64,000 nucleotides of DNA, taken from a virus. Below, piece by piece: positions 5,941 through 59,682 of the stretch. The notes beneath the pieces are model-generated. The model did not search any database, was not told where the DNA came from, and saw nothing but the letters and a program-made list of their open reading frames with translations. A program made the position numbers and the translations under genes. Position 1 is the stretch's first letter; each line of letters opens with the position of its first letter. The DNA lies in the IMG/VR virus record IMGVR_UViG_3300010391_000273, positions 1 to 64,000 of that record. One strand, 5' to 3'.

Positions 5941-6198
5941 CTAATCTTTTAAACTAGCTTGGAGTAGTACAGGATTAGGAGACCACCCTTGCCTGTAGGC
6001 TTCCATAATTTGTTGGGCGTTTGCAAATCTCTTAGCAGCTGGTGGTACCCGATTATGTGTATTGGGGGGCACGACAGGCATAGGTTGAGCGAGAGGCCTT
6101 GAAGGTCCAATTGGACCATCCTGGCCCTCTGGACGATTATCTGACGCCGTAGGCTGGGCCTGGGCTCGTTGTAGGAGGATTTGGGTTAGTGGATCCAT
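5941..6198 (-). CDS. small putative internal virion protein
   Basis: Coupled to upstream large ORF; DPLTQILL N-terminus. Confidence 0.55.
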   Translation of the reverse strand: MDPLTQILLQRAQAQPTASDNRPEGQDGPIGPSRPLAQPMPVVPPNTHNRVPPAAKRFANAQQIMEAYRQGWSPNPVLLQASLKD

Positions 6199-6200
6199 TG

Positions 6201-9200
6201 TTACTTTTTAGTTGGTCTAGCTGGTGGAGTAAAAGGTTTTCTTGTTGATCCACTAGGTTGTGGTCTGGTTGTAATTACAGGTTGGGCCGGTCTGGAATTT
6301 ATTGGTGGTTCAGATTTATCCATAAGTTGACTAATAAAACCTGGAAGAGAACCTGGACGATTTGGTCTAAAGACACCCGGAAGAAGCCCCCCAGGAAGTG
6401 ATTCCAGTGATGCCTCTTTTTCTCCAGTCAATACTTTACTTAGATTATAGACATCAACAATTGGTTGAGTTGTAGGAAGAGGTAAATCTCCTGACGAAAG
6501 CCTCTGAATAACCGCACCCGCTGGGCTTTTTTGAGAACTGTAGGCTAGACCTGCTACGAAGGCTGAGGAAACAAGGGTTCCATATTGACCTGTAGCTTCA
6601 TTAATAAACTTCCGAATAACCTTGTTAGTTGGGCTTCTCGGATCAGAACCTGGCATAGAGGCTCCTAGCAAGAACGAAGCTCCAGCTAGACCTCCTCCAA
6701 AGGTTTGTTGTGCAATTTGGGCGGACCTTGAATCTCGATCTATAACATCCTTTGCTCTTTGAGCAAAGATGCCTATAACGGGTGTACGCTCAAGTGAGCG
6801 TTCCATCTGATTTACAGCTGTTCTATAGAAAGGTAGAGCTAGATTAGCACTAATAGATTTAATTCCACCCTTTGTTTGAGCACCTTTTTTAAACTTGGCA
6901 ATACCCTGACCCCACCCTGTTAGTGGCTCTGCAGTCAATGTTATAAGACGTGCTTCTTGTTCAGAAAAGCCCGCATCCATTAGTGTGCGCCTAGCCGAGC
7001 GGTCTCCTGCAGCCATAAGTATTGCTGGAGATGAAACCAAGGCTCTAAATGATTTAGGACCAGCTTGTCCCATAACTCCTTCAGTTCGCTCAGTAACATC
7101 CGCGATAATGTGTTTAGCTTCACCTGCCATAACACCAGTTTTAACTCCAGAAAGGAATTTATTTGTAGTTAAAAGTAGTTTTAAGGCTTTTAGTCCTCTC
7201 ATATCGCCTTGCAAAGCATGTTCAATAGAACCCATGAGAGCTGATCCGTATGGACCAACAAGGACGTTAATTGGAAGATTTATTGGATCTAGGAGATAAG
7301 AAAATCTCTGCCAGTCTGGGAGCATTCTGCCAAGTGTGGTAACAGACCCTTTAACTTTATCTGCAACTTCTGAGATTTCAGTTTGGGTTGCATTTGGGTT
7401 TGAACGAACAGCATTAATGGCTGCTCTAATAGCTCCAGGAGCCAAGACTCCTGCTGTTCCACCAATCAAGGCTCCTTTCAGGGGATCCTCTGGAGTTTGT
7501 GTAGCACCTACAGCCGCTCCACCGAGACCCCCAGCGATTCTAAAGATAGCCTGATTTGCAATTTCACCCTTTTCCCCATTCTGCTTGAACTTCCTTACAA
7601 GATCAGCAAGGAGCCTATCTTGTTCAGCAGGAGAGAGTTTACTTAGTTCATCAGAGGTCGGTGAAGGAGTCTCAACAGGCGGTTCAAAAGGCTTAACTGG
7701 CTCTACTGGTATAGCAGATTTAGAGGCAGCTGCAAGTCTTTGTTTCTCACTTTGTGCAAGAGCTTGTAAGGCCTGACCAGTTTCACGTTTAATTTCAGGA
7801 GGAGTTGAAGGATTATTATAGATTGCATCGAGACGTTCTCTCTCTAAATTGGCTTCTGGTGAGAAGTTCTTTAGAGCAAAGTCTATTTGCTTTTGAATTC
7901 GTGCTGCCCGACTAGCATCAGGAGTTGAACGAATAGGCGCAGCACCTTGAGGCTCAACAGGAGCTGGGGGTGTAAATAGGTCAGGTTGTGATGAAGGAAC
8001 TGCACCTTCTCCTAGTGGACCTGGAAAACCAGCACCTTCTGGGGCTTGAGCCGGCATTCTAGGAACAAGCTTAGGCGTAGGGTTATTTGTAGGGTTTACT
8101 CCTGGAAGTGTAGGTTCAGGCTCTCCAACAGCGTTAATTTGAGGTGGAACTTGTGGTTCAACTGGGTGAGCCAGAGCACCATAAGAATCAATAAGATCTT
8201 GGGCATCAGCTGGAGACATCTTACTAGACATCTCTGGTGTGACCCCCATTTTTTCTAAAGCTGCTTGTTGAGCAGCAGAAAGTGGGGCGATAGACACACG
8301 AGTATTACCTGGGTATTGTGGATCTGGTTCCTTAAATGTTAGATCTGATGGAGGTTCAGCTGGGAATTGAACTTGAATTTTACCTTGACTTCGAGTATAG
8401 AGATCTTTCCACTCTGCTAGTTCTGCTGGAGTTCTTCTCACACCTACTCCAGGTTGAATATCCTTCATACGCAAAACTTCATCTGGTGATAGATCGCCAA
8501 AGTTAGGTTTAGGGACAGGTATTGGCTCAGAAACAATTGGTTGAGCAGGTTTAAAAGGAACTGGAGCTTCTGCTATAGGCTCAGCACTCACATCTGGGGC
8601 TACAGGGGCTTGTGAATCTAAACTCTTAAATCTAACTTCCCACTTAGTTGGGCTTACTTGTTTAACATAACTATCACCACCTAATTGCTTTACCTTAAAA
8701 AATGCCTCAGTTTTGTTAAAACGTTGACCATGAAGCCCCATCATTTCATCAGTGATAATAGGGCTGCCTGGGCCTGGGGTAGGCGGCTCTGGGGTTGGGG
8801 TAGGTTCGATTGGGCTTGTAGAAGGAACTTCAGGTGGTTTGGTGGGGACTATTTCAATGAGTCTATAGGCTCCTCCAGGTGTTTTGGCAATGTCATATTT
8901 ACCACCAAGTTTATTACTGGCGACTACAGCTTCCTTTTTAGTTTCATAGAGTATTTGTAGGGGATCTTGGGGGCCTGTCTTAGAGCCCCCACCTAAAGCT
9001 GCTGCTTCATCTACTGGGGGTTCAGCCACATGCTTGATGGATCCTGATATTGGAAGACCAGTCTCTGGATCAATACCCCTCAATGGGGTTGAAAGAGATG
9101 ATGGATCTTGCTGAATTGGAAGACCTTCTTTGATTCTATCTAGTTCAGCCTGAGCAAGTCTAGCTACTTCTTCTTTAGCCTGAGTTGCTGCAATAGCTTG

Positions 9201-29483: not shown

Positions 29484-29553
29484 TGGATCCCCATGGTGGG
29501 GTTGAACCACCGTCTCCTGACCGGAGCCAGGCACTCTTCTGAGCTAATGGGGA
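29484..29553 (-). tRNA. atypical tRNA (short D-loop, 6-nt anticodon loop CUCCGG; Arg-CCG- or Gly-UCC-like), CCA encoded
   Basis: Acceptor UCCCCAU/AUGGGGA-U-CCA, D arm GCUC-AGAA-GAGU, T arm GGUGG-UUCAACC-CCACC. Confidence 0.7.
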
Positions 29554-45421: not shown

Positions 45422-45712
45422 GTGCCTAACAAGTATGAACTAGGTAATGGTCTCATTCCACTTGGTGCTAAACATGGCAGGTACCTCTATATCAAGTATA
45501 AGTGCAAGTGTGTAGTGTGTCGTAAAGCGGCTTCAGTCTACCAAGTCGAGAGGGTCAAAGCACTCGTAGCCCAAGGTAAGTGTAAGTCATGTGGGAAACC
45601 TCATGTTGATGGCCTTCAGTATAGGTGCAAGGCTTGCAATGAGAAGTCTACCATCTACAATAGGAAGATGAGGGAGACTAACAAGCTTTTAAAGACTCTT
45701 GGGGTTTTTTAA
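45422..45712 (+). CDS. Zn-finger protein
   Basis: HG...Y...CKCVVC, CKSC, CKAC. Confidence 0.55.
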   Translation: MPNKYELGNGLIPLGAKHGRYLYIKYKCKCVVCRKAASVYQVERVKALVAQGKCKSCGKPHVDGLQYRCKACNEKSTIYNRKMRETNKLLKTLGVF

Positions 45713-45800
45713 TCATGGAGTTCGGCAACACGGAGATGCCGTGGACGTACAATAAGGCGAAGAAGACGCTCACGCTGGACGAAGAGGCGTAGGACACATC

Positions 45801-45870
45801 GCGGGGATAGGATGACGTGTTATCCATCGGGCCGCGCCCGAGAGGCTGGTGTGACACCCAGTTCCCCGCA
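45801..45870 (+). ncRNA. tRNA-like element copy 1 (6-bp D stem, no CCA)
   Basis: GCGGGGA/UCCCCGC acceptor; GGAUGA-CGUG-UUAUCC; UCGGG/CCCGA; GCUGG/CCAGU. Confidence 0.7.
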
Positions 45871-46099
45871 CAGTTTGCCGGTTAGTTCAAAATTGGAGAT
45901 CGAGTTTGGATAACAAGTAGAAACAAGAAAGCTACTATTGTCCATCTCACTAGTAGTGGATGAAGATTGGAGGGTTTCTGGCCATTTGCCCTCGCTCATG
46001 GCGGGTCGGACTGGGGATCGCGCTGTGGAATACCAGTGCAGGGCTCCTGCCGATGATGGTCCGCTGATTGCACACCCAACAACTCAGGAGAAACGAATC

Positions 46100-46969
46100 A
46101 TGAAACGATTGACATGGGGATTTCTTGCACTCGTGTGTGTCTACAGTCTGCTCGTCGGCGGGTGTTCGTTGGACAAGGGGTCCACAGGGCCCTCGGCAGT
46201 CGAATTGGGGACTCCGGTGTCGCCAGGATCACAGCTGTACACCCTCGTGGGGAGTCAGTTTTTGGGGACATTGACCGCCAATGTGGGTGGCACCAGTGGA
46301 ACATTGGGCATCCTGTTTACCTCAGAAGGGGGCACCGCTGTGACCGCAACGGTGACGTTCAACGATGGCCAGGGCTATGTGGGCGATGCCGTAGGGACAC
46401 TGAGCAACCTCCATACACTCGCGCGCAACGGATTATCGGGTGGCGGGTGTACGGCATGGGAGAGTCAGGGAACGGTGACGTTGGCTGTGCCGCCTGCTCG
46501 CGACACCTACACAGGCTCGTACTACGCCACATGCCACAACAGTCCTTCAGCGGTGTTTGGTGATAGCGGGACGTTTGCTCTTTCCCGTACAGGGACATTG
46601 GGACTTCCGATTCCGCCGCCTCCAGTGATTGTAGACGTGTGTCCTAATCTTGAAGGGACACAGCTTGTCGTGCCAGCGGGATACGTCCTCACAAATGGGC
46701 AGTGTGTCCTGATTCCCCCTCCGCCACCGCCCCCGCTGCTCTGCTCCACGTCCTACTGGAGGATGAACAATGGGAACACGAACGCCAAACAGAACAAGTG
46801 CGTGAACAACGGTGGTACGTGGCTCGGAGAGTTTGACGTGCCGGGATCAGCAGCCGGTATCGAGCACGACGTATGCAAGTTCCAACCGAATCCACCGGGC
46901 GCACCAGGGAACGATGAGACATTGATCACGCCGCCTGGATTGACGCCGATTGCGTGTCCGATCTCGTAG
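46100..46969 (+). CDS. lipoprotein, beta-rich with Pro/Cys-rich C-terminus
   Basis: AGGAG RBS, MKR + hydrophobic stretch + VGGC lipobox; DVCPN repeat. Confidence 0.7.
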   Translation: MKRLTWGFLALVCVYSLLVGGCSLDKGSTGPSAVELGTPVSPGSQLYTLVGSQFLGTLTANVGGTSGTLGILFTSEGGTAVTATVTFNDGQGYVGDAVGTLSNLHTLARNGLSGGGCTAWESQGTVTLAVPPARDTYTGSYYATCHNSPSAVFGDSGTFALSRTGTLGLPIPPPPVIVDVCPNLEGTQLVVPAGYVLTNGQCVLIPPPPPPPLLCSTSYWRMNNGNTNAKQNKCVNNGGTWLGEFDVPGSAAGIEHDVCKFQPNPPGAPGNDETLITPPGLTPIACPIS

Positions 46970-47036
46970 GCGACAACTAACTACTAGTGAATGACGTGGA
47001 TTTCACTGCTAGATACTACCCAGATAGGCCTTTAAC

Positions 47037-47255
47037 ATGAGGTATTACACATACAACGAGCCTCCAATCGTACCCGGTGGTACACCCACTCAACCTATTC
47101 TTTCAGAGGCCCAGATCCTAGCGATCTACTTCCCATGTTGGTCTAAACAGATGAGGAAGGCAGGCAAACAGAATCTCATCAGCTTCGAGAATTGCATAAA
47201 GGATTGGGTTGTAGTCCATTGGGCTTGGGAAGTCCTTAAGCCATTAGATGTATAA
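47037..47255 (+). CDS. conserved phage hypothetical protein
   Basis: SE..IL..YF..W...M...ENCIKDWVVVHWAW. Confidence 0.6.
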   Translation: MRYYTYNEPPIVPGGTPTQPILSEAQILAIYFPCWSKQMRKAGKQNLISFENCIKDWVVVHWAWEVLKPLDV

Positions 47256-47462
47256 TCGTGCATGATCGTAACAGGAAAAAATTAACCATGATCTCAATCA
47301 TTCTCGGCTTTACGTTAGGTGGCCTAATCCCGGCCTATATCCTTAAGCATTACCAGGCCTATACATGCCTCGTTAACCTAAATTGTAATTGTAAATATGA
47401 TGAGGATTGGTTAGATTAAGTCTTCTAACAATCATGCAATGATCATCAGTCATGCAATGATC

Positions 47463-47585
47463 GGTAGTAGGTTGAAAAAGTCTCTCTAAGAACAAGTTAA
47501 ATCCTCAACCGTGCTGGGAGCTAGGTTGAACTCACTTGTCTATGATCTACTGATCATGTTAGAGAGACCTTTTGAGCCTACTGCC
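47463..47585 (+). ncRNA. putative structured ncRNA (~123 nt, long closing stem with branched interior)
   Basis: GGUAGUAGGUU/AGCCUACUGCC and GUCUCUCUAA/UUAGAGAGAC stems; inner ACAAGU/ACUUGU, UCAACC/GGUUGA, AUGAUC/GAUCAU. Confidence 0.6.
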
Positions 47586-47647
47586 CGGTCAAACCTCAAG
47601 GTAATAGGGTGTGAGGTGCCTTCACCTACCATCTTTCTCCCAACCCA

Positions 47648-48286
47648 TTGGTGGTAGGCTCAACTTTATCATTGCATAATGATATGCATGATTATTCTAA
47701 GGTGTTTAACATGATCGCGGCTAAAGTCGTCGTCGTCGTGAAGGATCCGTTTGAAGTCAGTCTCTTAACGAGTGAGGATGCGAACCTCCTTGTTCGTGGG
47801 TCAGGGCGTTTGCAAGATCATGCTGCTCGTCAACTCAAACCTGAGTCTGATCCTTTAGGGCTCCCTGTGAATGAGTGGCAATGTGTTCATGTGGAGACCA
47901 CCTACAAACAACAGGATGGAGCACCGAAAGGTGTCACCATTCCACAAAGTTTCCGGTGTACCCACTCTATCGATAATGGTGGGTTCCTTTGCTCGTACCA
48001 TGATCGACACCTTCTCTCAATCAAACTGAGCCCGGTTGACCAAGCCCAGTTCAAACTTTGGTATGAGACTCATGCCGCTGATATCGTGGTCGATGGCGTG
48101 ATCAAGGCTGACCAGCGTGAACTTAGGAACTACACCATCCAGAAGCGGTGGGGTCTCAAGATCCACACTTGCCCAACGCCGCCACAGCTTGTCAACTCCA
48201 AGACTGGAAAGACAAGAGAGATCGCTGTTGACCCTGAATGGGAGAAGGTGGAGCTTGTAGGGGCTGGTCAATCCGATGAAGTCTGA
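47648..48286 (+). CDS. hypothetical protein (start likely 47711)
   Basis: ORF with C...C...C..H ligands. Confidence 0.55.
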   Translation: MVVGSTLSLHNDMHDYSKVFNMIAAKVVVVVKDPFEVSLLTSEDANLLVRGSGRLQDHAARQLKPESDPLGLPVNEWQCVHVETTYKQQDGAPKGVTIPQSFRCTHSIDNGGFLCSYHDRHLLSIKLSPVDQAQFKLWYETHAADIVVDGVIKADQRELRNYTIQKRWGLKIHTCPTPPQLVNSKTGKTREIAVDPEWEKVELVGAGQSDEV

Positions 48287-48671
48287 GGACTACCTGAACG
48301 ACATACGGCTTAGCTCATTCAAGCCGCTGAAGACTCTTCCTAAGGAGTCTAAGAAGATTCTCTACATGACTCTCTTTAATGAGGGTAACAAGGTTCTTAA
48401 AGCTTATAACCCATGTCAAATTAAGGATGGGACGTGCGCCGGAAGCTATAAGGATGATATAGGCTTATGCTGTAATGGTTGTAAGCACCTTGGACCTCTT
48501 GGCTGTACTGTTGAAAGCCTAATGTGTAAGCTTTGGCTTTGTCAAGGTATCATACAAACACCAGCTGGTAAAAGTGCTATCTTAAGACTGATTCAACTTC
48601 ACCATGTAGCACGAGCATCTGGTGTACCTCTCGTAATGAGATCTTCATTTGAGGCATCTTTCAATGAATGA
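48276..48671 (+). CDS. Cys-rich putative Fe-S/Zn cluster protein
   Basis: PC...C...CCNGCKHL...GC......CKLWLC. Confidence 0.6.
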   Translation: MKSEDYLNDIRLSSFKPLKTLPKESKKILYMTLFNEGNKVLKAYNPCQIKDGTCAGSYKDDIGLCCNGCKHLGPLGCTVESLMCKLWLCQGIIQTPAGKSAILRLIQLHHVARASGVPLVMRSSFEASFNE

Positions 48672-48731
48672 CTACCTAGGAGAGCTGGCTCCACTCAAGA
48701 CTAAGCTTAAAATCTTCTATAAGTGTTTTGA

Positions 48732-49271
48732 GTGTGGACTCATTCGGCGAAGCCTTTTGGAGACCTAAATATGCGTGATTTTATCAAAGTGCCAGCTATG
48801 TTTTTTACCTATGGTTTTCTCTGGATCGCGATTCAAGACCGTAGTGTTGATGCTCTCGTGGCGATGATCTTACCTATAGTTATCTGGGTCTGGGCAGGCA
48901 CGACTGGTGAATATCCAACCTTTGATTGCACCTCGTGGGAAAAGAAGCTTGCAAAAGAGATTGAATATGGGATTGAGCAGACTCAAAAACAAGCAGATGA
49001 GCAAGAAAATGATCGACAGAGCGGTATACGGTGGTTCAGAGTTACTACTGGTAAACCATCAGTCCTTGCTCAAGCGTTCTATGTTCAGGGATCAGCCTAT
49101 GGACCTCAACGATATTTCAGGGCGAAAAGTTATTCTATTAACTGTGGGGCTCTTGTATTAGAAGGGCCGGTTTTACCAAAACGGAGCATTTCTGTTTTTT
49201 CTTCTGTATGGTTAGAGGATGCTCCACAGTGTATGTCAGCAGGATCTTGGTGCTCTATAGAAGAAATGTAA
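48732..49271 (+). CDS. membrane-anchored hypothetical protein
   Basis: Two hydrophobic segments followed by soluble domain. Confidence 0.5.
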   Translation: MWTHSAKPFGDLNMRDFIKVPAMFFTYGFLWIAIQDRSVDALVAMILPIVIWVWAGTTGEYPTFDCTSWEKKLAKEIEYGIEQTQKQADEQENDRQSGIRWFRVTTGKPSVLAQAFYVQGSAYGPQRYFRAKSYSINCGALVLEGPVLPKRSISVFSSVWLEDAPQCMSAGSWCSIEEM

Positions 49272-49324
49272 GGACTGTAATAGAAGGAAATCAGGAAAAT
49301 AGTATGACCCTTTGGTTCATCTCT

Positions 49325-49438
49325 GATAGATACAACGGGAGCACGATAAATATCTCCTTTGTTTCCATAACTCATTGTAACACACCCTTCACCATCGAAT
49401 AATCCGGCTAGATATTGAATAGAAACAGTCTTTTTCAT
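49325..49438 (-). pseudogene. truncated LAGLIDADG homing endonuclease
   Basis: IQYLAGLFDGEGCV...PVVSI, then the pattern is lost; own TTGACA-18nt-TAGACT promoter upstream. Confidence 0.7.
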
Positions 49439-49519
49439 TTTTAAATACTCCCAATAAGTTACAAACTTATAGTCTACTAGATAATAAAGAAGATTGTCAA
49501 CAAGATTAAACTGTTGAAG

Positions 49520-49775
49520 ATCAACAAACCGCCATTCGGACGGGGCTGCAATGCCCCCGACTCCACCATAACAAATTTAATGAGTATGGGGTCGACTTAG
49601 TTTCGACGGGTAGCTTAGTAGTTGATTGGAGGTTTAGTCGTAAGACCCACGAAACGGGTCAACCGATAGTCAACGACTATCAAATGGCAGCGTAAGCTGC
49701 AATCGACTTATAAGGTCTAATCACCTTTAGGTCCGGGTTTTGTGGGTTGTCCTCGGAACAGAATCAACCCTCTTT
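49520..49775 (+). ncRNA. ssrA: circularly permuted (two-piece) tmRNA; tag (A)NDYQMAA
   Basis: 3' acceptor half CGACUCC-A-CCA (49558-49568) precedes 5' half GGGGUCG (49588-49594) with G3:U70; pseudoknot UCGU/ACGA + GACCC/GGGUC; AUAGUC then tag 49672-49695. Confidence 0.88.
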
Positions 49776-49791
49776 CAAACAAGTTTTAAGT

Positions 49792-49913
49792 TTGTGGTGT
49801 CCAGACTCCTTAGAGGAAGAGGAGACACTCCTCACTTAAGCGGCTTAGGCTAGCAGGCTGACAGACGCTGGATGAGAGACCCCTTTGGCGTAATAGCACA
49901 CTAGGCACCACAA
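49792..49913 (+). ncRNA. putative structured ncRNA (Y-RNA-like candidate) upstream of TROVE-like/TerD gene
   Basis: 10-bp terminal stem UUGUGGUGUC/GGCACCACAA, inner GAGGAG/CUCCUC hairpin, UCCUUA near 5' stem. Confidence 0.55.
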
Positions 49914-49927
49914 TCAATAAGGTTAGA

Positions 49928-51667
49928 GTGTATATGATGAATCCAACTCTAGCTACGATTGACCTGTTCAATGTGGTAGTTGCCTCTGAGACTGGCTTGA
50001 ACCTAAGCCATGCTCCCTATGGGTTTGTGACCAACTTCCAGCCCACTCAGGAGCAGATTGAGGTTCTGAGGGAACGTTTCAAGGCTCTCTCCATCATCAC
50101 CCTGTTTTCGGTGAGGGAGCGGGAAACCGCAAGCCTTGACCAACTCCTTCTCAAGCAGCTGCTCCACTATGTCGAGGTATATGGGTTGGAGAGCCCAGGA
50201 TTGTTCAATCTTGAGGTGATAGGTGGGAGGGTTCAGACCATCTCCTATGTCAAAGCCATCTCGATAGGTGAGCTAGACAAAAAGATAACTGAACTACTCT
50301 ATGCCAATCGCCCCATAGATGATATCGCCCCTGTGCTTGAGATCATCTCACACTACAAGATCCTCTATGACTTTAACAAGATCAAGAATAACGAGCTAAA
50401 GGTCGCTCTCTTTGATATCTGTAGGGATACATTTGTATCTGGAGATGATGCAGTTCGTTATATCTGCTACAAAGCTACTAAGAGTACACTCCTTATCAAG
50501 AGCAAAGATGTCATTCAAAAGGTAGCAGTCAGTCAGCCTTCTGATGAGTTTCTATCCAAGCATGTAAAGCCATTAGCGCAGGTATTCAATCGACATAAGA
50601 GGATCATCCTCGCCTGTAAGAACAAGCTGAATCGTGGAGTGATTAACCGGATCTCAAAGCTGAGTAAAAAGGCTCATGTTCCTATTCATGAGGCAGTTTC
50701 CAAGAGATTCATCTCATCAGCAGTTAACGGAAAGGTTCCAACCAATCTTCTCGATACTGAGGCCATCACCCTTCGTGACAAGCTAAAGTATCTAAACTTG
50801 ATCGAGTATAGGCTCCTTGAGCTCCCCTTTGATACGTTCCTGATCAGGAATGGAAAGGTGTGGGCTGAGACAGAGCGAGCCATTCTCGATCCATCTAAGT
50901 TGACCACTCTTCGGGAACTTATTCTCAAGTCAATTTGCAAAGATTTGAGTGAACTGAGGGGTAAGTCCATCCTCCTCGATCCTGCCGTTGATTATGGCTT
51001 GCCTACCTCCCGGAAACAAGTTGTAGGACGACTTCCCTTCGGGACACGGGTTGAGGTTGATCCTCATGATGAGGTACTTTCAGCTGGAATCTACTGGCAT
51101 AACGACTCATGGGAGGGTCAATCAATCGATCTAGACCTCTCCGCCATAAGCTCAAGTGGTGGTCGTACTGGGTGGGGACATTACTCAAGCTTCACATCTA
51201 AAGATATCGTGTTCTCTGGAGACATCACGAGTGCTCCTGAGGGCGCTATGGAATTCATGATGGTTCATCCAAATGAGACCAATCGCTATGGTCTCATGGT
51301 GAATGTCTACAAGGGTCCAGATGAGTGTCCTATGGAGATTGTGGTGGGATCTTCTAACAAAAAGGATTGGCTTGATCTTGCTATCATTCGTGAGAAGATT
51401 GTTCTCAAGTCTAAGCAGAGCATCATTGGCTTCCTAAAGGACGATACCTTTGTCGTGTACACTGGGAGACTCAGCAATTCAAGGGTCTCGGCTGGAAAGC
51501 ATCCAGTTATCGACAAGGGCTTAGGCAATCTGTGGACGATCAAGACACTTTTGGATGAGTGTAAGGTCAAGTATGATTTTGTTCCCAAGGCGGGATTAGT
51601 CTACGACTTCGATCTGACCTATCAAAACTTCTCGCTTGACAAGCTAGAAATCCTCTTGGGCGTCTAA
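49928..51667 (+). CDS. ROT/TROVE-like helical domain fused to C-terminal TerD-like domain
   Basis: QLLHY, F.S.DD..RY, FNRHK, INRISKLSKKAH.P; AGIYW...IDLDLSA...FSGDITSAPEGAMEF. Confidence 0.72.
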   Translation: MYMMNPTLATIDLFNVVVASETGLNLSHAPYGFVTNFQPTQEQIEVLRERFKALSIITLFSVRERETASLDQLLLKQLLHYVEVYGLESPGLFNLEVIGGRVQTISYVKAISIGELDKKITELLYANRPIDDIAPVLEIISHYKILYDFNKIKNNELKVALFDICRDTFVSGDDAVRYICYKATKSTLLIKSKDVIQKVAVSQPSDEFLSKHVKPLAQVFNRHKRIILACKNKLNRGVINRISKLSKKAHVPIHEAVSKRFISSAVNGKVPTNLLDTEAITLRDKLKYLNLIEYRLLELPFDTFLIRNGKVWAETERAILDPSKLTTLRELILKSICKDLSELRGKSILLDPAVDYGLPTSRKQVVGRLPFGTRVEVDPHDEVLSAGIYWHNDSWEGQSIDLDLSAISSSGGRTGWGHYSSFTSKDIVFSGDITSAPEGAMEFMMVHPNETNRYGLMVNVYKGPDECPMEIVVGSSNKKDWLDLAIIREKIVLKSKQSIIGFLKDDTFVVYTGRLSNSRVSAGKHPVIDKGLGNLWTIKTLLDECKVKYDFVPKAGLVYDFDLTYQNFSLDKLEILLGV

Positions 51668-51676
51668 TTAGCTCTT

Positions 51677-51859
51677 GAAGCCAATAGAGTTCCTTAAAAT
51701 TTAATGCAAATTACTCTACGCTTCTAATTAAAAATATGGTTTAACTGGTCTGTATGAGCAAATAGGGTTCCTTAAACTTGGTTATTACCCTACGCCCTTA
51801 ACCTTTTCTCGACAAACAGAGTTCCTTAAAATTTTATACAAATTACTCTGCGTCGGGAA
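51677..51859 (+). repeat. array of three covarying hairpin RNA units (51677-51724, 51756-51797, 51806-51859)
   Basis: stem-MAA-YAGRGU-UCCUUAAA..AUU-ACYCUR-C-stem' with compensatory changes. Confidence 0.85.
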
Positions 51860-51904
51860 TCTCTACTAGGCCTATTAGAATAACTCGTCAGATAGGAGCC
51901 GCCC

Positions 51905-52429
51905 TTGTTTATTTGTGATGTATGTTCGAAGCCTGTCGGCCCTGGGGTCAAGCCCCTTATGCTCATCCTTCCGACTGATATGAGGCAGACTTCCTATCAT
52001 AATGTGATAGTCGATCCCGAGACTGAGGAGAAGTTTACCAAGGTCTCAAGTGGAAGTGAGTTCATCATCGAGTATAAAACGTGTGGTGCGTGTGCTGGAG
52101 TGGAAGCGAAGATTCCAACCAAGCCCAACCATACAGGCCACATCAACATCATGAGAGGTATGCAAGCTCATGCTAAGCTGTGTAAGAAGAAGTTTGACGA
52201 GTGTGGTCATTGTCAGGAGAATGTGGAGTTTTTCAAGTCGATTCCACTCGTGACCATAAATTTGGGTCTAACCGATCCTATGACAAAGCCTATGAAGGTT
52301 AGCATGGCCTACACAGTCGTGGAGAACATGCTCAGAAGGTCTAAGCACACCTCCATGCGGTCCAAGGCAGACTTTAACGTATCTTACCCCATTCTCAAAC
52401 AGTATGAGGAACGTGGAGGAAGTCTCTAA
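51905..52429 (+). CDS. Zn-binding hypothetical protein
   Basis: AGGAG RBS; CDVC, CGAC, H..LC...CGHC. Confidence 0.6.
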   Translation: MFICDVCSKPVGPGVKPLMLILPTDMRQTSYHNVIVDPETEEKFTKVSSGSEFIIEYKTCGACAGVEAKIPTKPNHTGHINIMRGMQAHAKLCKKKFDECGHCQENVEFFKSIPLVTINLGLTDPMTKPMKVSMAYTVVENMLRRSKHTSMRSKADFNVSYPILKQYEERGGSL

Positions 52430-52432
52430 AAT

Positions 52433-52503
52433 TTCGGGGATAGGATGACGTGTTATCCAACAGGTCGCAACTGTTAGGCCGGTTTCACACCCGGCTCCCC
52501 GAA
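52433..52503 (+). ncRNA. tRNA-like element copy 2
   Basis: UUCGGGGA/UCCCCGAA; D arm identical to copy 1; AACAG-GUCGCAA-CUGUU; GCCGG/CCGGC. Confidence 0.7.
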
Positions 52504-52599
52504 CAATAAGTCCGGTCAATATGCAATTTGGAACACGGGGCCACAAACGTTGAGTCCCATCACCTGTGTGTTTAAACCGTTGGTGCATCAGGAGTTACA

Positions 52600-52884
52600 A
52601 TGTTTACCTTGAAACCGAGCGACCTGTCTATCCTTTCAGAAATCAACGAGCTTTCTCATAGATATGGCGACATTTCTGGGGCGTACCTATTCAAATTAGG
52701 AGAGACGTTTCAATGGATGCCCCTCAAAGACTATCAAAGACGAATAATCAGGCTTGTAGACAACAAATACATCGATATTAAAGGCAACTTAGCCTTCCTA
52801 ACACCTCTTGGGACACGTGCCGTAGGGGGTGTCCTAACGAGGTCGGATGTAGTTGGAGTAGAGACAGAAGCCGAGCAGGCATAG
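52600..52884 (+). CDS. winged-helix-like protein
   Basis: IIRLVDNKYI...LTPLG. Confidence 0.55.
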   Translation: MFTLKPSDLSILSEINELSHRYGDISGAYLFKLGETFQWMPLKDYQRRIIRLVDNKYIDIKGNLAFLTPLGTRAVGGVLTRSDVVGVETEAEQA

Positions 52885-53353: not shown

Positions 53354-54232
53354 ATGAAGAAGATCATCATGGTAACCCTAGGCATGTTGAGTGCTGGCCT
53401 TCTGTGTGCCCAAACGGGGAAACTGTATATTGGTCCAGAGAACCCCACAGATACCCGGTGGGCTACTAAAGCAGACTTTGATGGCTCCATTATCTTTTGC
53501 CGTGGGTTCTATACGAGTGATCGACAAGAGGCTAATGGGGGTGGATGGTGGACCGATTACCCAGGCGGTGATAACAATTTCCTTGTGAGACTCTCTGAGT
53601 TGACGGAGACTCGGGTAAGGTTCTCCAAGGATCGAATTCCCTTCTTTGTAGTTGTGCATCTGGACGATCCGCTTCTGTTCAAATGTCCGATCCTGTTTAT
53701 GGAGGATGTAGGGACAGTACGATTCACCGATCGGCAAGTGGAGATGCTCACACGATATTTTGCTCAAGGTGGCTTCTTGTGGGTTGATGACTTCTGGGGC
53801 TCACAAGCTTGGGAGCAGTGGGAGTATGAGATTCGACGGGTCTTACCATCGGGAACCCATCCGATGTTTGACATCCCTACCGACCACCCGATTATGCACA
53901 TGCTGTATGAGGTGCCAAAGATTCATCAGCAGCCCACAATTGGGTTATGGAACACAAGTTGCTCGGGCGATGAGTTTGACTCTGACGCCACAGTCATTCC
54001 ATGCCTTGATCAACGCTGGCCCACCTCCGAACGTGGGGCCGACAGCGCAGAAGTCCACTTTAGAGGCATTCAAGATGAGAATGGCCACCTCCAAGTCGTC
54101 ATGACACATAACACAGACATCGCGGATGGCTGGGAAGAGGAAAAGCCCAATAACATGGCCTACATCCATGAGTTTTCCGCTAAGTGCTACGCGATTGGCG
54201 TCAACATCTTTTTATATGCGCTTACCCATTAA
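53354..54232 (+). CDS. DUF4159-family exported protein
   Basis: WWTDYP, GGFLWVDDFWG, HNTDIADGWE, IGVN...YALTH; signal peptide. Confidence 0.85.
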   Translation: MKKIIMVTLGMLSAGLLCAQTGKLYIGPENPTDTRWATKADFDGSIIFCRGFYTSDRQEANGGGWWTDYPGGDNNFLVRLSELTETRVRFSKDRIPFFVVVHLDDPLLFKCPILFMEDVGTVRFTDRQVEMLTRYFAQGGFLWVDDFWGSQAWEQWEYEIRRVLPSGTHPMFDIPTDHPIMHMLYEVPKIHQQPTIGLWNTSCSGDEFDSDATVIPCLDQRWPTSERGADSAEVHFRGIQDENGHLQVVMTHNTDIADGWEEEKPNNMAYIHEFSAKCYAIGVNIFLYALTH

Positions 54233-58794: not shown

Positions 58795-59682
58795 ATGAGT
58801 TACATGCACATAGACCTACTTTACAAGTGCCCAGACATCTTAGCTTTTAAACAACTCTTTGCCTTAGAGAAGATTCATGGGACGAGTGCTCACCTTAGAC
58901 TTAAGCTTGGGGAGATTACCTACTTCTCAGGTGGGGAAAGTCTAGGTAAGTTTAGAGCCTTGTTTGATGATGACAAGCTTCATGAGGCCTTTAAGACTAA
59001 GTTTGGTGAGGCCGATGTAGTTACCATCTATGGTGAGGCCTACGGAGGTAAACAACAGGGCATGAGCCATACCTATGGGCCTGACCTGAAGTTTGTGGCC
59101 TTCGAGGTCAACCTGAACGAGATGTGGCTGAGTGTTCCTCAAGCTCACGACTTCTGTACGAGTTTTGGAATTGAGTTTGTAAGTTATAATCTTGTAAGCT
59201 CAGACTTAGAGACTCTTAATGCTGAGCGTGATTTGCCTTCTGTGCAAGCCGTGAGAAACGGAATTACTGAGCCTAAGCTCCGAGAAGGCATCGTTCTGAG
59301 ACCTCCCTTCGAATGTAAGACTAATAGGGGTAGGCTCATCTCTAAGCATAAGGGTGAGGCTTTTGACGAGCGCGATAAGCCTGTTCACCCTGTCGATCCA
59401 GCAAAAGCTGATGAACAGGTTAAAGCCGAAGCCATCGCCTTTGAATGGGTAACACCTAATAGGCTTGAACATGTAATCGACCATATGGTTGCCATGCGGG
59501 AGGATAAAGAGGTTGGTATGGAAGATGCAACAGCCCTTATTGCTGATATGGTTGAAGACATCACCCGAGAAGGTGCAGGTGAGGTTGAAATGACTCCCAA
59601 ACTCAATAGGAAGGCCATAGGAGCCCAAACAGTGAAGCTTCTTAAGGCTAGACTCCAAGCAAGACTAGAACAAGCATCATGA
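58795..59682 (+). CDS. RNA ligase, Rnl2-like family
   Basis: Motif I EKIHGT, IYGE, FVAFE, REGIVLR, KHK...F.E. Confidence 0.8.
   Translation: MSYMHIDLLYKCPDILAFKQLFALEKIHGTSAHLRLKLGEITYFSGGESLGKFRALFDDDKLHEAFKTKFGEADVVTIYGEAYGGKQQGMSHTYGPDLKFVAFEVNLNEMWLSVPQAHDFCTSFGIEFVSYNLVSSDLETLNAERDLPSVQAVRNGITEPKLREGIVLRPPFECKTNRGRLISKHKGEAFDERDKPVHPVDPAKADEQVKAEAIAFEWVTPNRLEHVIDHMVAMREDKEVGMEDATALIADMVEDITREGAGEVEMTPKLNRKAIGAQTVKLLKARLQARLEQAS

Follow-up and report, generated by a model that had tools for sequence, protein, structure and literature searches.

The window analysed here is a 64,000-nucleotide (nt) stretch of DNA, positions 1 to 64,000 of the IMG/VR virus record IMGVR_UViG_3300010391_000273, a phage genome 98,575 bases long, which derives from a sediment-metagenome assembly and is graded complete by CheckV. 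Its plus strand carries a protein gene (49934..51667, stop codon at 51665–51667), hereafter the partner gene, which is followed on the same strand by three hairpin RNA units, U1 (51677..51724), U2 (51755..51798) and U3 (51808..51857), the first beginning ten bases 3' of the stop codon. Translation from ATG 49934 gives 577 amino acids (aa), and GTG 49928 gives the 579 aa claimed in an initial annotation of the window, which was made from the letters alone. The three hairpins belong to a widespread, covarying phage RNA family that is absent from Rfam, and the family is linked to homologues of the partner gene across phages. A search of public runs for this sequence returned two carriers, both sediment-metagenome DNA from one study, and no RNA run.

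The three units, each of ~50 nt, have a common architecture, in which an outer stem is followed by a 3-nt A-rich bulge with a single C across from it, then by a 6-base-pair (bp) inner stem ending in G-U and by a loop that starts with UCCUU. U1 reads GAAGC / CAA / UAGAGU / 22-nt loop / ACUCUA / C / GCUUC, with an outer stem of 5 bp. U2 combines a weak outer stem (3/5 pairs), an AAA bulge, a UAGGGU/ACCCUA inner stem, an 18-nt loop and the bulged C, and U3 consists of a 6-bp outer stem, an AAA bulge, a CAGAGU/ACUCUG inner stem, a 22-nt loop and the bulged C. All three loops begin UCCUUAAA and all end AUU. The initial annotation had described three non-identical units with a common fold and with inner stems that covary (UAGAGU/ACUCUA, UAGGGU/ACCCUA and CAGAGU/ACUCUG), and the sequence confirms both statements, the 6-bp inner stems differing between units by compensatory changes. 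In the minimum free energy (MFE) fold of 51665–51900 (z -2.86), the U1 and U3 hairpins form, together with the inner stem alone of U2, whose outer stem is poor.

The same architecture was first spotted by eye behind homologues of the partner gene in two IMG/VR loci, where the proteins are 46–48% identical. A simple scan looked for UCCUUA with six bases in front of it whose complement occurs no more than 70 nt further on; filtered for a GU ahead of the motif and for AC plus the C behind the loop, it yielded 82 distinct units in about 50 loci, and 55 of these were used to build a covariance model, R1. Matches to the model numbered 95, from 53 sources, and each lay on the same strand as the protein gene. 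Within the window (64 kb, both strands), U3 scored 52.3, U1 50.8 and U2 41.1 bits, with the next best match at 10 bits, and the whole 98.6-kb phage genome held no further R1 copies beyond U1–U3. One pattern match elsewhere (L076), which lies inside an open reading frame (ORF) and scores 16 bits, was treated as chance.

Structure is strongly conserved across the family. Pairing holds in 97.5% of the cells of the R1 alignment, and both sides change in 10 of the 11 pairs; none of 500 shuffles reached the observed level, and a slid partner gave 28–44% pairing. Four features are invariant in all 93 distinct units, namely UCCUU at the loop start (single-stranded in every unit), the bulged C, the last bulge A and the closing U-A pair, and the G-C pair adjoining the closing U-A pair is kept in 92 of the 93. 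Loop length varies between 18 and 62 nt, with an extra hairpin inside some loops, and the constant stem with variable loops that had been proposed for the window is borne out across the family. No family in Rfam 15 matches the units, at E up to 10 for positions 49400–52000 and up to 1 for positions 45700–52700, and R1 had 0 matches in 150 other Pseudomonadota genomes.

RNA and protein occur together almost without exception. Counting the 43 homologous loci that have at least 150 nt of 3' flank, a unit starts no more than 150 nt from the stop codon in 39 and is present somewhere in the locus in 42, so that the motif is tied to this protein family across phages. The first unit usually lies 0–115 nt after the stop codon (0–30 nt in most loci), and there are one to six units per locus. 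This linkage persists at ~25% protein identity, in two Synechococcus phages, S-CRM01, where units lie at -100 and +5 of g174, and S-CBWM1, with one at -10 of gp22, and in the gut phage Phass-1. Starting from the RNA, a pattern scan of IMG/VR found 16 true motif loci, 15 of which carry the protein on the same contig; the sixteenth is a fragment of only 10 kb that ends in the motif. Across loci the pair has no other recurrent protein-gene neighbour (antisense ORF clusters among the recurring neighbours were rejected as artefacts), a survey of 400 other Pseudomonadota genomes gave no clear homologue and two distant relatives, and no description of the RNA–protein pair was found in the literature searched.

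The partner protein is composed of an N-terminal domain of ~370 aa, alpha/beta plus helical and of no recognised fold, a TerD fold (beta-sandwich) at residues ~374–529 and short C-terminal helices, in a confident AlphaFold model (pLDDT 86.6, pTM 0.84). Fold searches uphold the TerD assignment of the initial annotation. The Pfam TerD model PF02342 did not match at E up to 1, which we put down to a protein too diverged for the model; its sequence does contain DLDLS and SGD motifs. Neither Pfam (E up to 1) nor PHROG nor PADLOC has a family for the protein. The N-domain on its own returned no convincing match to solved structures, and botulinum-toxin rows in a fold search were discarded as noise (root-mean-square deviation 24–34). 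Its conserved residues are rich in Arg, Lys and His and include a few acidic motifs (NNE, GDD), a composition that fits nucleic-acid binding and leaves an enzymatic role open.

Relatives of the partner protein fall into 1,172 clusters at 50% identity, unnamed and mostly viral. Full-length look-alikes in BFVD come from Lactobacillus phage LpeD and Campylobacter phages IBB35 and CP21, an alignment with a 704-aa bacterial protein covers residues 70–466 at 75% probability, and no longer fused forms were found. A distant tie connects the protein to the MXAN_6230/SCO0854 family (NF041916), which it matches at 24.5 bits against a cut-off of 600 and only over residues 365–453; the similarity in this TerD-like region is weak (E 6.8e-6; E 1e-7), and in the ESM Atlas the SCO0854 Prok-RING_4 proteins are structurally similar (TM 0.60 over 467 residues). 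The Prok-RING_4 architecture attributed to the protein at the outset holds to this extent and no further: the match is below cut-off, PF14447 (Prok-RING_4) finds no match, and there is no RING finger. The MXAN_6230/SCO0854 proteins, in contrast, are bacterial (Actinomycetota), ~840–990 aa long and equipped with a RING finger.

The pair is set in islands of translation RNAs. In about 33 of 47 loci, genes for transfer RNA (tRNA) or transfer-messenger RNA (tmRNA) lie within 3 kb and, with few exceptions, share the strand; units are placed between tRNA genes with tRNA-like spacing. In five loci (L007, L027, L030, L033 and L037) a permuted tmRNA abuts the units and follows them. In the window, too, a permuted two-piece alpha-type tmRNA gene (49463..49773, +) stands directly upstream of the pair, a gene overlooked in the initial annotation, which matches RF04321 at 69 bits (cut-off 47) and RF01849 at 55.4 bits (cut-off 50), both models being matched end to end. 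This tmRNA belongs to the same translation-RNA island and not to the RNA–protein pair. Its tag frame, taken from the Rfam alignment, ends ...NDYQMAA-stop; ARAGORN made no call for it. Some 7 kb downstream of the pair, a 299-aa ORF contains an Rnl2-type RNA ligase domain (58855–59340, +; PF09414, 41 bits, over the cut-off), and no RtcB was found in this phage genome.

Units also occur away from the gene. Contig 10 of genome G006, a Cellvibrionaceae metagenome-assembled genome, is 201 kb long and probably a binned jumbo phage; three strong units (L086–L088; 166682–168948, −; 47–49 bits) are part of a second tRNA array there, at a distance of 95 kb from the protein gene, which the contig carries once. 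In S-CBWM1 a unit is found 2.5 kb upstream of the gene, between tRNA-Pro and tRNA-Glu, in Phass-1 one is found 1.5 kb downstream, and in L008 sigma-70-like promoter sequences stand ahead of units. Copies among tRNAs far from the gene argue for trans-acting small RNAs, and distant units, tRNA setting and L008 promoters jointly make free small RNAs that mature along with tRNAs likelier than an exclusively cis role.

On this evidence we lean, with modest confidence, towards reading the gene and its three hairpins as one conserved large-phage module, made up of an RNA-binding protein and its cognate small 'handle' RNAs. The pair is probably an undescribed RNA–protein particle that is like Ro60/Y RNA in layout and has no detectable relation to it. 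The hairpins would be transcribed from the same strand as the tRNA/tmRNA genes around them, and tRNA-maturing enzymes would release them as stable RNAs of ~50–60 nt. What the protein would recognise is the invariant core: the outer stem where it ends in G-C/C-G, the 3-nt A-rich bulge with one C across from it, the two pairs (G-C and U-A) that close the inner stem, and the UCCUU with which the loop begins. The remainder of the loop would be free to vary. The particle may then act on tRNA-like or other translation RNAs, in surveillance, in repair or in protection against host RNA-targeting defence.

Surveillance, repair and counter-defence are the directions towards which the tRNA/tmRNA setting, the Rnl2-type ligase and the precedent of Bas63 gp130 point. 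That Ro60-like phage protein is encoded directly upstream of phage tRNA genes and counters the ppl defence (PhageMaP preprint, PMC11482910). Like the partner protein it is a phage protein at a tRNA array, it has been proposed to work with tRNA-like RNAs, and its tested anti-defence phenotype makes it a functional model; gp130 is, however, reported to be structurally Ro60-like, whereas no such likeness is detectable in the partner protein, and the tblastn matches in the phage collection did not include Bas63. A bolder form of the proposal, which we consider unlikely as it stands, is that of a widespread phage particle unrelated to Ro60 in which the constant bulged handle docks RNAs on a TerD-fold protein and the variable loops, in some cases with an additional hairpin, act as exchangeable adaptors or decoys, so keeping the RNA-targeting defences of the host off phage and host tRNAs or tmRNA. 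Were it true, such an adaptor/decoy particle would be a second, independently evolved instance of the Ro60/Y-RNA design.

Several observations weigh against a protein with cognate handle RNAs. The N-domain is without a recognisable RNA-binding fold; one homologous locus, L042, has no detectable unit, and the two distant bacterial relatives examined (L084 and L085) have no hairpin RNA beside them. The loops show no significant complementarity to the neighbouring tmRNA, to two tRNA mimics and an odd tRNA described below or to the gene leader. The covariation alignment was fitted to R1 and so favours the structure (the margin is large). The first unit, finally, stands nearly always directly after the stop codon, a position that a cis role on the messenger RNA fits as well.

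The last point leads to the alternative that survives best, to which we give a minor share of credence: the units could be cis elements of the gene's own transcript, whether a 3'-end stabiliser, a processing signal with respect to the downstream tRNA/tmRNA or an autoregulatory operator, with no free small RNA. The first unit's distance of 0–30 nt in most loci, always on the gene's strand, agrees with this, as does the window itself, where no terminator or convincing promoter was found between gene and units. A cis element accounts poorly for the units 95 kb away in another tRNA array (G006), 2.5 kb upstream (S-CBWM1) or 1.5 kb downstream (Phass-1), for up to six copies per locus and for the promoter-like sites in L008, and a mere stabiliser needs no invariant loop start and internal loop across 25–60% protein identity.

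A second alternative, which we regard as quite improbable, is a true but highly diverged Ro60/Y-RNA system, with a TROVE-type helical ring as N-domain and the hairpins as Y RNAs; the initial annotation had labelled the protein Ro60/TROVE-like and the RNAs Y-like. In both systems a protein gene of ~550–600 aa is flanked by small structured RNA genes, a bulged recognition helix is present (here with a 3-nt bulge and a single bulged C), and there is a tie to tRNA biology and a presence in phages (Rsr with YrlA/YrlB and Yrn1; PMC4201824). The ESM Atlas neighbours add to this, being Prok-RING_4 proteins of the SCO0854 kind. Pfam describes these proteins as ROT/TROVE-like plus TerD.

Direct comparisons did not bring out such a relation, and the Ro60/TROVE-like label is left unsupported by every route taken. 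TROVE (PF05731) did not match the partner protein in Pfam at E up to 1, nor anything in the whole phage genome in a scan that did find its controls; an hhalign comparison with 7 bacterial TROVE proteins gave a probability of 0.1% (E 0.65–0.78); a profile search of PDB sequences returned no Ro60; and none of four fold searches, of which two used only the N-domain, listed Ro60. Ro60 is TROVE plus vWA, whereas the protein here shows neither signal and has TerD, not vWA, as its second, C-terminal domain.

The RNAs differ as well. The Ro-binding motif of Y RNAs is GGUCCGA in animals and GNCGAAN0-1G in bacteria, in the 5' strand of the stem (PMC4201824), whereas the units read ...GC-AAA-NNNNGU-UCCUU... 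and contain neither, their conserved sequence lying at the base of the loop (GU-UCCUU). They are single hairpins of ~55 nt with no tRNA-like domain, ARAGORN calling no tRNA-like gene at the units, and their 3-nt bulge and C face each other (a 3x1 internal loop), on strands opposite to those of Y RNA. The Y RNA and YrlA models were among those that drew no match in the Rfam searches given above, and the Y-like designation is likewise unsupported.

It is similarly improbable that the RNAs act without the neighbouring protein, as sponges or mimics pairing with UAAGGA-type ribosome-binding sites or as nut/put-like antitermination sites that help RNA polymerase through long untranslated tRNA arrays: UCCUUA is the last six bases of Escherichia coli 16S ribosomal RNA, the UCCUU is invariant and single-stranded in 93/93 units and the units do lie within long non-coding tRNA/tmRNA transcription units, but their near-exclusive co-occurrence with one protein family would go unexplained, large tRNA arrays upstream of the gene are without units, the CCUCC anti-Shine-Dalgarno core is missing and the hosts of carrier phages differ widely in translation-start signals.

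Two further systems bear comparison with a protein and its handle RNAs. The species 1 and 2 RNAs of phage T4 are small stable RNAs that are co-transcribed and processed with a tRNA cluster; like the hairpin units they are small RNAs other than tRNAs that lie in between phage tRNA genes and share their strand, yet they have no sequence or structure in common with the units, and we know of no dedicated partner protein for them. RNAs of the CsrB/RsmZ type sequester a protein through many copies of one loop motif. The likeness there lies in tandem hairpins that each show the same short single-stranded loop motif; the units here, by contrast, are separate bulged helices with closing stems of their own and lie in between tRNAs, and the partner protein has no relation to CsrA.

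The protein family, with more than 1,100 clusters at 50% identity and almost all members in phages, has no name in Pfam, PHROGs or the literature searched, and its RNA partner is a clean, strongly covarying family new to Rfam. Both are located in the islands of tRNA and tmRNA genes that large phages carry, and most of what these islands hold besides tRNAs lacks an explanation. The existence of a dedicated particle would matter for the question of how phages maintain or protect the translation machinery against tRNA-targeting host defences, and would offer a second model beside Ro60/Y RNA for protein-plus-handle-RNA designs. Since two cultured cyanophages, S-CRM01 and S-CBWM1, carry the pair, the proposal is directly testable.

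The initial annotation had also placed a candidate RNA of 122 nt directly upstream of the partner gene (49792..49917, +). Its 10-bp closing stem and UCCUUA are present in the sequence, as described; its fold is no better than that of shuffles (z -0.70, equalled by 51 of 200), and it has no Rfam match. The 3' ~45 nt of the element (49873–49917) recur in one related locus, L049 (~920–963), where they sit downstream of the units and the closing stem is not kept. As a partner RNA the element is not supported. The recurring ~45 nt, GCUGGAU...CCCUUUGGCGUARUAGCACAC, stand directly upstream of a different ORF in each phage, an observation from two sequences only.

Two cloverleaf tRNA mimics flank the locus (45798–45875 and 52431–52508, both +). 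They are 72–78 nt long and ~80% identical, with four compensatory pairs between the copies. The acceptor stem has 7 bp, the D-like stem 6 bp and a 4-nt loop, the anticodon-like stem 4 bp and the T-like loop 8 nt; neither ARAGORN nor Rfam called them. The other loci yielded no such mimics, which are therefore no general partner of the pair. The sole ARAGORN call in the window (29484–29553, −) is tRNA-like and has an irregular 2-base 'anticodon'. Of the ten ORFs neighbouring the pair, nine matched no Pfam or PHROG family, the exception being a 292-aa protein with DUF4159 (53354–54232, +; E 4e-35).

Other loci added further observations. In L034 ARAGORN called a tRNA with anticodon CUA near the pair (1775–1850), an amber-reading 'tRNA-Pyl', and Phass-1, another carrier of the pair, is from a clade that uses genetic code 15. 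The distant bacterial relative in L084 (G248 contig 19; 2642–5290, +) is an 882-aa protein that shares only the TerD-like region; its gene lies ~0.9 kb from a convergent polynucleotide phosphorylase gene (6178–7941, −), which may be coincidence. Further RNAs accompany the pair in two large phage contigs, GOLLD RNAs (187–192 bits) lying ~1 kb downstream of it in L008 (5669–6131) and L026 (5933–6394), and L008 also contains a skipping-rope RNA at 135–226.

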